The notes under the pieces: model-generated | Databases searched by the model: none | Seen by the model: only the letters and a program-made list of their open reading frames with translations | What the model was told of the DNA's origin: nothing | Made by a program: the position numbers and the translations under genes | DNA from: a virus | Lineage: Duplodnaviria; Heunggongvirae; Uroviricota; Caudoviricetes | Virus record (IMG/VR): IMGVR_UViG_2671180458_000002 | Length of the DNA: 33,821 nucleotides | Direction: 5' to 3' (one strand) | Shown here: piece after piece, positions 1-33,747 of the stretch | How positions within the stretch are numbered: the stretch's first letter is position 1 | Layout: each line of letters opens with the position of its first letter

Positions 1-212
1 TCTCCCGGAAAACCGGGGCGGTTCAAACCTTTGATTTGCGATAATCAACTCGCCATAATCATGTCATCGGAGCCTGAACAACTCCGGTGACTTCTGCGCT
101 AAACGGGGACGTTTATGCGCACACACAATCCAAACTCTCTTCTCCCTCCACAGATGCAGAAATGCACCTGCGATATATTGTATCCAGCGTTTGACCTCTG
201 CGGAGGTGAAGC

Positions 213-668
213 GTGAATCTCCCACAAGATGGCATCAAATTACATCGCGGTAACTTCACCGCTATCGGTCGGCAGATCCAGCCTTATCTGGAGGAGGGCA
301 AATGCTTTCGCATGGTGCTTAAACCGTGGCGTGAGAAACGCAGTCTTTCCCAGAATGCACTCAGCCACATGTGGTACAGCGAAATCAGTGAATACCTCAT
401 CAACAGGGGTAAAACGTTCGCCACTCCAGCTTGGGTAAAAGATGCTCTCAAACACACATATCTCGGTTATGAAACCAAAGACCTGGTTGATGTCGTAACC
501 GGTGATATCACCACTATCCAGTCGTTACGCCATACCTCCGATCTTGATATCGGAGAGATGTATGTCTTCCTGTGTAAGGTTGAAGCCTGGGCGGTGAATA
601 TTGGCTGCCACCTGACTATTCCGCAGAGCTGCGAGTTCCAGCTGCTCCGTGACAAGCAGGAGGCGTAA
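213..668 (+). CDS. ybcN: nin-region protein YbcN (151 aa)
   Basis: ORF with GTG start; translation matches my recall of DLP12 YbcN ([15 protein letters not shown]...LLRDKQEA) almost residue for residue; its stop overlaps the next start (TAATG). Confidence 0.85.
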
Positions 669-838
669 TGGCTACACCGCTTATTCGTGTCATGAACGGA
701 CACATCTACAGAGTATCAAATCGTCGTAAGCGTAAGCCTGAGCCGAAGCCATCCGAAATACCAACACTGCTCGGATATACCGCTAGCCTGGTTGATAAAA
801 AATGGTTGCGACTGGCAGCAAGGAGGAATCATGGCTGA
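668..838 (+). CDS. ninE: NinE family protein (56 aa)
   Basis: Small ORF below the 60-aa track cutoff, read manually: [56 protein letters not shown]; matches recalled DLP12 NinE; overlaps ybcN stop and ybcO start. Confidence 0.75.
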   Translation: MATPLIRVMNGHIYRVSNRRKRKPEPKPSEIPTLLGYTASLVDKKWLRLAARRNHG

Positions 839-1121
839 TTTGAGAAAAGCAGCGCGTGGTCGGGAATGCCAGGTAAGAATCCCTGGCGTATGTAATGGCA
901 ATTCTGAAACGTCTGTACTGGCACATATCCGGCTGGCTGGATTGTGCGGTACCGGTATCAAACCGCCAGACCTGATTGCCACCATTGCATGTTCTGCCTG
1001 CCACGACGAAATCGACCGCCGCACACATTTTGTCGATGCTGCATATGCAAAAGAATGCGCGCTGGAAGGTATGGCGAGAACACAGGTTATCTGGCTGAAA
1101 GAGGGGGTTATTAAGGCGTGA
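831..1121 (+). CDS. ybcO: YbcO / DUF1364 family putative nuclease (96 aa)
   Basis: Internal ATG of track ORF 792..1121 ([23 protein letters not shown]...), matching recalled DLP12 YbcO; Cys/His-rich; the upstream in-frame extension is not used because it overlaps ninE. Confidence 0.8.
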
Positions 1122-1480
1122 ATACCTACAGTATCACATTACCCTGGCCTCCGAGCAATAATCGCTATTACCGCCATAATCGCGGGCGCACGCACGTCAG
1201 CGCAGAGGGGCAGGCATACCGCGATAACGTCGCCCGAATCATTAAAAACGCAATGCTGGATATCGGCCTGGCTATGCCTGTGAAAATCCGCATTGAGTGC
1301 CACATGCCGGATCGCCGTCGCCGTGACCTGGATAATCTGCAAAAAGCCGCTTTTGACGCACTCACTAAAGCAGGTTTCTGGCTGGATGATGCTCAGGTCG
1401 TTGATTACCGCGTTGTGAAGATGCCTGTTACCAAAGGTGGGAGGCTGGAACTGACCATCACCGAAATGGGGAATGAATGA
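1118..1480 (+). CDS. rusA: Holliday junction resolvase RusA (120 aa)
   Basis: GTG start overlapping ybcO stop (GTGA); translation [18 protein letters not shown]...[10 protein letters not shown] matches recalled E. coli RusA. Confidence 0.9.
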
Positions 1481-1617
1481 TGTTTGAGTTTAATATGGCA
1501 GAACTTCTTCGCCACCGCTGGGGGCGTCTGCGCTTATATCGTTTCCCCGGTTCTGTTTTGACCGATTACCGAATACTGAAGAATTACGCCAAAACCCTGA
1601 CAGGAGCAGGAGTATGA
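1477..1617 (+). CDS. ylcG: small protein YlcG (46 aa)
   Basis: Manually read ORF overlapping rusA stop (ATGA): [46 protein letters not shown]; matches recalled DLP12 ylcG. Confidence 0.65.
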
Positions 1618-1702
1618 AGTCAGAGATAACAATCAACTAATACTGTTTTGTTGATTTTTGCTTGTAATTGGCGTTCTGGTCTGATTTTTGTGGAGTAAGT
1701 TG

Positions 1703-32138: not shown

Positions 32139-32277
32139 TGTGTCTCTGAATATCGGAATAAAGATAAGATTTGAATATATTGAGGTCTTGTGTTGCGGTA
32201 AGAGATTACACGTTATGACATAGGTTAAATGCTTACAAAATTAGTGGATATTGTCTACTTGTAACTGTAAACAAATT

Positions 32278-32304
32278 CCCCGGGGTTATACAATACCACC
32301 GGGG
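32278..32304 (-). terminator. possible ompT terminator hairpin (CCCCGG ... CCGGGG)
   Basis: Inverted repeat immediately downstream of the ompT stop on the minus strand, followed by AATTTGTTT; weak U-tract. Confidence 0.35.
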
Positions 32305-32324
32305 AGAAAATCTGGTTAACTTCG

Positions 32325-33278
32325 TTAAAAGGTGTACTTAAGACCAGCAGTAGTGATGAAGTTATAGTTTTCTATGCCTGCACCATTTTTGCTGTAGTCT
32401 GAAGTGTTATCATTGTGATCATAAAGTGAAGTATTACCTTTTTTATTCGTAACCCGATTCCATGCGCCTTCAACATAAACTTTTGCGTTAGGTGTTACGT
32501 AATAACCTGCATTGACTGCAACAGAATAGTAATTTTGGTCTTTGACTTTACTGCGATAAGTGATTCTTTTTCCTGGGTCATAGTGCTCATCGTTATCAGA
32601 TGCTTCCACCCAGCCGCTGTATTTAAATGTGCCACCTAGCTCAAAATCTTCATAACGATAACTTCCAGTCAAGCCAATGTAGGGCATTTTAAAACGTTGT
32701 TTGTAGCCGATTGCTCTTTCTCCATTCGGGAAGGAGCCGATATCATCTCTGAATCCCTCCTCAGAACTGTAGATATAGGAACCACCTCTGGCTGTAAAGC
32801 TATAACGGCTTTCCTGATATCCGGCCATGAGTCCCAGGCGGTAATTGGGTTCGTTGAGGAGCCAGCCTTTGATATTCAGATCAAATTCGTTGGCATAATT
32901 GAGTTGTGTATCAGGGTGCCTACTTTCATCTGTCCAGGTTCCGGGGTTACTGGAATCCATCCAGTCCTGATCGACCATATTGCCACCTCGGCTGCCGAGA
33001 GTAGTCCAGCCCGCAGCCCCAATAGATATCTGGGGCATCAAATCCCAATTAATTGCACCTTTAATAATTGCAGCGTTATTGAATTTCCAGTCGAGTTGAC
33101 TGACTTTTCGGCCTCCTTCTTCAGCTAGATAAACGCGCTCTTTTGTTTTTCCGCTCAGAGTTCCAAGACTAATGTCCGCATTTATGTTGTCAGGAGTAAA
33201 CGATATAGTCTCGGTAGAAGCAAAAGAGCTGATCGCAATAGGGGTTGTCAGGACTATTCCCAGAAGTTTCGCCCGCAT
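32325..33278 (-). CDS. ompT: outer membrane protease OmpT (omptin family, 317 aa)
   Basis: MRAKLLGIVLTTPIAISSFASTETISFTPDNINADISLGTLSGKTKERVYLAEEGGRK...TTAGLKYTF near-identical to recalled E. coli OmpT. Confidence 0.95.
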   Translation of the reverse strand: MRAKLLGIVLTTPIAISSFASTETISFTPDNINADISLGTLSGKTKERVYLAEEGGRKVSQLDWKFNNAAIIKGAINWDLMPQISIGAAGWTTLGSRGGNMVDQDWMDSSNPGTWTDESRHPDTQLNYANEFDLNIKGWLLNEPNYRLGLMAGYQESRYSFTARGGSYIYSSEEGFRDDIGSFPNGERAIGYKQRFKMPYIGLTGSYRYEDFELGGTFKYSGWVEASDNDEHYDPGKRITYRSKVKDQNYYSVAVNAGYYVTPNAKVYVEGAWNRVTNKKGNTSLYDHNDNTSDYSKNGAGIENYNFITTAGLKYTF

Positions 33279-33702
33279 AAAAGTTCTCCATTCAATCGTT
33301 TTAATGATTGAATATGTATTTTTTATATCTAACTTAATGAGTCAATTACATATTGCTCCACTGTTTATATTTTGTTTAGTATTGAATGATTATCACAATG
33401 CGTCTATCTGTTTTTGGTTTAATTATCTGTTATTGTTTTATATTGCGGTTTTACTGTGTGGTTTTTTTATGCTTTTGTGGTGTTTTTATCTATTTAAGCG
33501 CCATGCCTTTAGAGGCATATAAGCGAAAATAGCATGAGGTTTATCCTCAATTGCTATGTTTTTTAGTACAAAAAAGAGGGACAAAACTGAGACACATAAG
33601 GCCTCACAATGGCTTGCAAGGCTTTACATGTTTTGAGGTAGTGGGACGTGTGAGCGCAGAGATGGCGCGGTAAGTTGTTGACTTAAAATGTCGTTCTAGG
33701 AA

Positions 33703-33747
33703 CTTCTAAGTCGTGGGCCGCAGGTTCGAATCCTGCAGGGCGCGCCA
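33703..33747 (+). other. prophage attR core: 45-nt 3' fragment of tRNA-Arg (argU-type), not a functional tRNA
   Basis: CTTCTAAGTCGTGGGCCGCAGGTTCGAATCCTGCAGGGCGCGCCA matches the anticodon-loop-to-CCA portion of recalled argU; the upstream sequence cannot form the 5' acceptor, D or anticodon stems. Confidence 0.8.

Follow-up and report, generated by a model that had tools for sequence, protein, structure and literature searches.

What kind of element is carried by the draft contig LOGI01000092.1, and is it still a working phage? The whole contig (33,821 bp, assembly GCA_001607155.1) was analysed and is called the window hereafter. An earlier note on this DNA had proposed an intact, inducible and packaging-competent relative of DLP12, the degraded prophage of Escherichia coli K-12. 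We find that the window very probably represents the right-hand ~33.7 kb of a lambda-like (Lambdavirus-type) temperate prophage of ~47.8 kb, inserted at the 3' end of argU in E. coli, and that this prophage is a full-length form of K-12 DLP12. The proposed relationship thus stands, since both elements are collinear and one deletion of ~21.7 kb apart, but "intact" and "inducible" are not established for this copy, whose integrase, immunity and replication genes lie off the contig and which bears an insertion sequence (IS) inside the prophage and a deletion in gpH, the product of the tape-measure gene H. This kind of element is already known. It is ordinary and common in E. coli, and near-identical free phages have been deposited.

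The chromosome of JNEC-KY174 (NZ_AP045170.1) is, by megablast, 100% identical and collinear to window positions 1-33796 except for 66 bp. The matching stretch there is the right part of a prophage located between tRNA-Arg argU/intD and envY. In the window, the right end of the prophage is an attR core (pauD-type) at 33703-33749 (+ strand), made of the last 45 nucleotides of tRNA-Arg argU (nucleotides 33-77 in JNEC-KY174) followed by TT. The match with the free Escherichia phage Turner (PP925837.1, 48,223 bp) also stops at 33749, and positions 6389-6435 of Turner are common to both prophage ends. The attR of DLP12 is likewise 47 bp long (PMC6379469). The argU-type att fragment at which the earlier note had ended the element is therefore confirmed by this 47-bp core, the end being shifted from 33747 to 33749. 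No tRNA was called when the window was scanned, the att fragment being too short for a call.

DLP12 in K-12 (NC_000913.3, 564755-586056) occupies the same attachment site, has the same attR core and retains the order of genes from ylcH to nohD at 95-98% DNA identity. At the protein level, the members of this set (ylcH, ybcN, ninE, ybcO, rusA, ylcG, quuD, essD, rrrD, rzpD/rzoD, bor, ylcI and nohD) are 82-100% identical to their K-12 counterparts, in agreement with the previously proposed match of the nin, Q, nmpC and lysis genes. The genes ybcY, tfaX and ompT at the right end are shared as well. Window 7228-28947 has no counterpart in K-12 DLP12, which is thereby left without any head or tail gene and without the greater part of A and of tfa. 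At the K-12 junction, the equivalent of window position 7227 is joined to that of 28948, with a TAT microhomology. K-12 DLP12 thus derives from such a prophage by a single deletion of ~21.7 kb, from about codon 103 of the terminase gene A to the middle of tfa, which fused A' to tfa', together with an IS5 in nmpC and some swaps of accessory genes. The deletion accounts for the aaaD and tfaD fragments annotated in K-12. Found only in K-12 are an IS5 in nmpC, ybcV/ybcW between bor and ylcI, and appY at the place where the window has an alpha/beta hydrolase gene. The window thus shows how a textbook cryptic prophage looked in its ancestral state: a single deletion lies between K-12 DLP12 and a full lambda-type phage. 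It also shows ompT, nmpC and bor (and emrE in relatives) to be carried by a type of phage that is still found as free virions. The two points were already visible in public genomes and phage records, and their value here lies in a correct annotation of this strain rather than in discovery.

The late half of the element was compared with lambda (NC_001416). In a base-by-base alignment, the cos site extends over 6181-6385 (+), with cosQ (GGGTCCT) at 6181-6187, the cohesive-end 12-mer of cosN (GGGCGGCGACCT) at 6211-6222, the nick at 6210/6211, and the cosB region, which binds terminase and integration host factor (IHF), reaching to ~6385. The 12-mer at 6211 is unique in the window. The site is identical to that of lambda over 6194-6348, and one 1-nucleotide indel is present near 6349 in the cosB region. 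Lambda position 1 falls on window 6211, directly after the stretch (5800-6210) that aligns to the right end of lambda; the cos junction is therefore continuous. Downstream and on the same strand are the genes for the small (Nu1/nohD, 6400-6945) and large (A, 6920-8845) terminase subunits, full length with 98.9% and 99.4% amino acid identity to lambda. These are followed by the head genes W, B (portal), C with nested Nu3, D, E, FI and FII (8842-14172), which are full-length and free of stops at 85.6-99.4% amino acid identity, and by the tail shaft genes Z, U, V, G and T (14184-16756), assigned by alignment with lambda proteins. The slippery site GGGAAAG for the G-T -1 frameshift is located at 16316-16322, with flanks identical to those of lambda. 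The tape-measure gene H (16749-19244, 831 amino acids) shows an in-frame deletion of 66 bp upon alignment with both lambda and JNEC-KY174. The tail-tip genes M, L, K, I and J occupy 19241-25045 (J, 21647-25045). The first four have 98% amino acid identity to lambda; J has 89%, with a divergent C-terminal, receptor-binding part. Then come lom, encoding an outer-membrane protein of the Ail/Lom type (25112-25711, Pfam Ail_Lom, 1.4e-119), the side tail fibre gene stf (25776-28802, a single open reading frame (ORF) of 1008 amino acids) and the fibre assembly gene tfa (28802-29386), with Pfam matches to phage_tail_N, Phage_fiber_2 and Collar. When searched with tblastn, the lambda proteins Nu1, A, W, B, C/Nu3, D, E, FI, FII, Z, U, V, G, T, H, M, L, K, I, J, Lom and Tfa all aligned essentially end-to-end with zero stops. 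Identities are 81-99% from Nu1 to J, 94% for Tfa and 44% for Lom, and the J alignment covers lambda residues 1-1128 of 1132. Stf aligns to lambda orf401/orf314 in parts only, and it is not split as in laboratory lambda. No stop codon or frameshift was found in the late genes with these protein alignments. The late half is structurally complete and its packaging signals are intact, as the earlier note had claimed for an uninterrupted cos followed by a complete lambda-like packaging, head, tail and fibre gene set.

In summary of the lambda comparison, lambda and the window have cos, Nu1 to J, tfa, Rz/Rz1 and bor in collinear order, with 96-97% identity in DNA and 81-99% in protein, and the G-T frameshift site is the same. 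The window differs from lambda by its Q, holin and endolysin, which are of the DLP12 type, by the insertion of nmpC, by a longer and unsplit Stf, by its distant Lom, by the 22 amino acids missing from H and by the divergent tip of J. Moreover, it carries the methyltransferase, hydrolase and ompT genes as opposed to the b region of lambda, and argU is its attachment site instead of attB-lambda. Such a high similarity to lambda, in a contig that ends in repeats, could also mean that laboratory lambda had contaminated the sample or that the contig is chimeric or mis-assembled. However, the identity to lambda is only ~96-97%, and the DLP12-type Q and lysis genes, the different J tip and the chromosomal attR/envY flanks do not fit with such an origin. 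The collinearity of complete genomes over the whole contig refutes it, and the 831-residue H allele is found on 16 independent contigs. We thus give practically no credence to an artefact.

Regarding the J tip, the last ~150-180 amino acids are ~50% identical to the receptor-binding region of lambda and ~53% to the h434 form. Because this part is only ~50% identical to that of lambda, the comparison suggests that the receptor of the window phage may differ from lambda's. The same C-terminus (window 24500-25045) is 100% identical to that of the infant-gut phage 2H10 and ~98% identical to those of several Shiga toxin (Stx)-converting phages. Within the 3' part of tfa, the Rfam IS009 model, a candidate small RNA, matches 29145-29343 (+) with 229 bits, for a gathering score of 117.

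Does this phage type exist outside chromosomes? Window 1-25000 was compared by megablast with 50,697 phage records, and 15 of these cover at least 80% of it. Turner came, according to its record, from surface scum on flowing water, and for PhiR30_1 (PV340558.1) the stated host is E. coli C. Over ~25-25000, both match the window collinearly at 97-99% identity, and about a dozen further isolates show the same collinearity. The free genomes of the ECOR-associated phages PhiR30_1, PhiR26_1, PhiR68_2 and others (PV3405xx) are collinear from ~25 on, with 97-99% identity. For Turner, DNA identity is 99.0% over window 25-17498, 97.1% over 17494-27257 and 99.86% over 29401-33749. The Turner genome corresponds to the excised prophage in circularly permuted form. 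It has an intD-type integrase gene beside the 47-bp core and carries ompT, the hydrolase, the methyltransferase, nmpC, emrE and ybcK. PhiR30_1 has the same layout from int to ompT, also with an intD-type integrase, and both phages share with the window Q, nmpC, the lysis genes, cos, the head and tail genes, lom, the methyltransferase, the hydrolase and ompT. Virions of this phage type therefore exist. Lambda-type temperate phages are the commonest temperate coliphages obtained from infant-gut E. coli, and some carry emrE (PMC6969025). The relatives also show differences. PhiR30_1 has another immunity region and other cargo in the nin region. Turner differs from the window by a DNA invertase segment and by the C-terminus of Stf. 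Its positions 10738-12496, between tfa and the methyltransferase gene, contain the invertase gene and extra small fibre-gene fragments that are absent from the window (29364-29401). This suggests a switchable fibre system in some relatives only. Neither Turner nor the PhiR phages have an IS upstream of ylcH, and they all retain the 66 bp of H.

The left arm was examined by proxy in JNEC-KY174, whose prophage is identical to that of the window up to and including the IS junction, and which has a full-length H of 853 amino acids. This arm comprises argU, intD, an ORF of 133 amino acids resembling xis, exo, bet, gam, kil, an S24-type cI, cro, a YdaT-type cII analogue, O, P, ren, emrE and ybcK. 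Its int, xis-like ORF, cI, cro, O and P are 95-100% identical to those of Turner and have no stops. A helix-turn-helix fragment beside the xis-like ORF is labelled "incomplete" by PGAP. We considered this as a possible defect and rejected it, the xis-like ORF being 100% identical in a viable phage. The extension to the left called for in the earlier note was thus made in the proxy, where integrase, immunity and replication genes are present and match those of a viable phage, although the IS also occurs there. The JNEC-KY174 prophage measures 47,893 bp between attL and attR with the IS included, and the window version would be ~47.8 kb. Such a length should be packageable because it is below the 48.5 kb of lambda.

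How early transcription reaches Q in this phage type is not obvious. No N-like ORF of at least 40 amino acids was found between kil and cI in the JNEC-KY174 prophage region (9118-9630) or in Turner (1094-1606), and the proxy left arm gave no Rfam match for an RNA-based early antitermination element, even at E<=1. Folding of the pL leader in the proxy left arm was no better than that of shuffled sequences (z = -0.19).

The IS is visible in the window only by its end. Positions 1-25 (+), at the contig edge, are the last 25 nucleotides (right inverted repeat) of an IS3-family element, and 26-28 are the 3-bp target duplication AAC. These 28 positions are identical to 18001-18028 of the JNEC-KY174 prophage region, where the whole element is present (1310 bp, 16716-18025). 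Its length and terminal sequence resemble those of IS629. The insertion site is directly after the stop codon of an ORF of 118 amino acids and upstream of ylcH. It is therefore intergenic yet inside the prophage, within the early-right operon, with the replication/ybcK block on one side and the nin genes and Q on the other. Turner is uninterrupted at this site. The junction is common to at least four complete genomes (JNEC-KY174, JNEC-KY202, CFIAFB20190167 and FHI_NMBU_11), whose matches begin at query position 1. When the IS was scanned for terminator patterns in the early-right direction, no intrinsic-terminator-like site was found inside it. The sole same-strand site was just downstream, in the ylcH region, and the counts were within chance and were not used as evidence. 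In JNEC-KY202 and CFIAFB20190167 (NZ_AP045178.1 and NZ_CM143724.1), an additional ISEc8 insertion (IS66 family) is located within the segment that matches window 1-12000. In this lineage of prophages, IS elements thus continue to accumulate.

The second lesion is in H. The deletion of 66 bp is located at 17498/17499 and removes gpH residues 251-272 (EQIAYVAQLQRSGDEAGALQAA), leaving 831 amino acids instead of 853. A short repeated CGGCG is present at its breakpoints. Collapse of a tandem repeat was considered as its origin and rejected, as there is no tandem repeat at that position. By exact-protein look-up, the 831-residue protein was found on 16 public contigs, i.e. the source contig and 15 others. 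The deletion is therefore not an assembly accident, because the same protein is encoded on all of these contigs. In lambda, particles with small H deletions have been reported to assemble with tails that shorten in proportion, by ~0.15 nm for each residue lost (PMC1796659). On this basis, the loss of 22 amino acids would be expected to make the tail ~3 nm shorter.

The statement in the earlier note that there are no frameshifts, IS insertions or obvious truncations has thus to be revised. Stops and frameshifts are indeed absent, but an IS is present at the left edge and 22 amino acids are missing from H. Is the window copy still active? A fully active temperate phage would excise, replicate, package from cos and release virions with slightly shorter tails in spite of the IS and the H deletion. 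This is consistent with the complete late region and intact cos, with the near-identical free phages, with the high identity of the proxy left half to Turner, with the intergenic position of the IS, with the assembly of lambda particles that have small in-frame H deletions (PMC1796659), and with an estimated size below that of lambda. Several findings weigh against it. The prophage is not free of mobile elements, since it bears the 1310-bp IS3-family insertion, and transcription from the early-right promoter must cross this IS to reach Q, so that the IS could be polar on Q and hence on all late genes. The phage isolates that match the window start at position 24-30 or later, and none extends into the IS end. 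The fixation of the IS junction in at least four complete genomes from different countries suggests vertical inheritance over recent infection. The 66 bp of H are kept in lambda, in every complete genome listed and in each of the 40 best phage records, and no virion isolated in those records is known to tolerate the deletion. Finally, the left third of the element (int, xis, immunity, replication and attL) is off the contig, and its content in the source strain is deduced from JNEC-KY174, which shares the IS junction. We therefore see the active phage as possible but doubtful, and the same hesitation applies to infectious particles still being produced by the window copy.

Alternatively, the prophage may be a recently grounded, defective one, with late genes still open and a lytic cycle left incomplete by polarity of the IS on Q, by a non-functional tape measure or by damage in the left arm. 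This would be an early stage of a DLP12-like decay. The IS inside the prophage and the private deletion of 66 bp, which hits an essential tail gene, are lesions of a kind that builds up when selection is absent. The extra ISEc8 in two sister genomes points in the same direction, and K-12 DLP12 shows the end point of such a decay. However, the 27 kb of late genes contain no broken ORF apart from H, the element is 97-99% identical to viable phages, the H deletion is in frame and the IS is intergenic. On balance, we lean towards the grounded prophage: an early-stage defective prophage is somewhat more likely than an active phage. For the sub-lineage with the 22-residue gpH deletion, known from the 16 public contigs, it seems rather unlikely that infectious phage is still made despite the IS upstream of Q. 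If it were, this would represent a natural polymorphism of tail length in a lambda-type phage, it would mean that late-gene expression tolerates an IS of 1.3 kb in the early-right operon, and the phage would be an active vehicle spreading ompT, nmpC, bor, lom and a secreted-type hydrolase among E. coli strains.

The near-identity of its parts to those of lambda and DLP12 allows a life cycle to be proposed for this phage type. Int would recombine the 47-bp core common to attP and argU. Upon derepression, rightward early transcription would cross the nin region to reach Q. Q would then antiterminate a late transcript that starts downstream of quuD and runs antisense through nmpC into the lysis genes, and lysis would be achieved by the holin, the endolysin and lambda-type Rz/Rz1 spanins. 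The late transcript would continue across cos into the 21 or more morphogenetic genes. The Nu1/A terminase would bind cosB, nick cosN and package DNA from cos to cos into a head made of E and D. The virion would be completed with a tail tube of V measured by gpH, a tip of J and side fibres of Stf. As accessory cargo, such a phage would carry nmpC, bor, lom, ompT, the methyltransferase and the alpha/beta hydrolase.

The genes between the IS and cos are those expected from the DLP12 comparison. The nin-region genes ylcH, ybcN (NinB-like), ninE, ybcO, rusA and ylcG (115-1617, +) have 82-100% amino acid identity to K-12 DLP12, and their assignment is also supported by Pfam (NinB, weak, and YbcO) and by the JNEC-KY174 annotation. 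The late antiterminator Q (quuD, 1703-2086, +) has 127 amino acids, is 99.2% identical to K-12 QuuD and matches Pfam Phage_antitermQ (8.5e-54). Between Q and the lysis genes, the accessory porin gene nmpC (2276-3373, -) is intact, encoding 365 amino acids (Pfam Porin_1, 1.8e-156). It is devoid of the IS5 that splits this very gene in K-12. The lysis cassette (3962-5132, +) consists of the holin gene essD (3962-4177), the endolysin gene rrrD (4177-4674) and the spanin genes rzpD (4671-5132) and embedded rzoD (4891-5073), at 96-100% identity to K-12 DLP12; relative to lambda, the identity is 99% for Rz and 98% for Rz1. The serum-resistance lipoprotein gene bor/iss (5164-5457, -), annotated as iss in JNEC-KY174, encodes a product 90.7% identical to lambda Bor and 89.7% to BorD, and ylcI (DUF3950, 5817-6011, -) was recognized by Pfam and by comparison with K-12. 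The bor and ylcI regions are just 289 bp apart in the window. The ybcV/ybcW genes of K-12 and lambda (homologs of lambda p78/p79) are absent from window 5511-5800 and from Turner. Promoter and terminator pattern scans of the region from Q to cos gave counts within chance, which were not used as evidence.

At the right end, the accessory block (29441-33278), identified by Pfam and comparison with K-12, comprises the S-adenosylmethionine (SAM) methyltransferase gene ybcY (29441-30109, -), a tfaX remnant (30166-30471, +), the alpha/beta hydrolase gene (30654-32138, -) and ompT (32325-33278, -). This block is also present inside the free phage Turner, at 99.86% identity. The hydrolase has 494 amino acids, with an Abhydrolase_1 domain and a TAP-like C-terminal domain. 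It takes the place of K-12 appY and is also found in Turner and PhiR30_1.

The prevalence of each part was estimated by megablast of three pieces of the window (1-12000, 12000-22000 and 22000-33821) against 5,426 complete E. coli genomes. The first piece was found in one place, with a coverage of 80% or more, in 1169 of these genomes, and the corresponding counts at the same coverage were 3114 for the head-tail segment and 269 for the piece from J to attR. Prophages at the argU (DLP12) site have been described as the most prevalent ones in E. coli (PMC6379469, PMC10057817).

Outside the prophage, the last positions of the window (33797-33821, +, contig edge) are the end of a second IS3-family element, where the sequence departs from all E. 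coli envY flanks. The 25-mer of this IS end has 234 occurrences in E. coli genomes, most of them on plasmids, and it is located beside an IS3-family transposase gene in FHI_NMBU_10. In the source strain, this element sits 1 nucleotide upstream of the envY stop codon, so that EnvY loses its normal C-terminal end, unlike in JNEC-KY174, whose envY has no IS.

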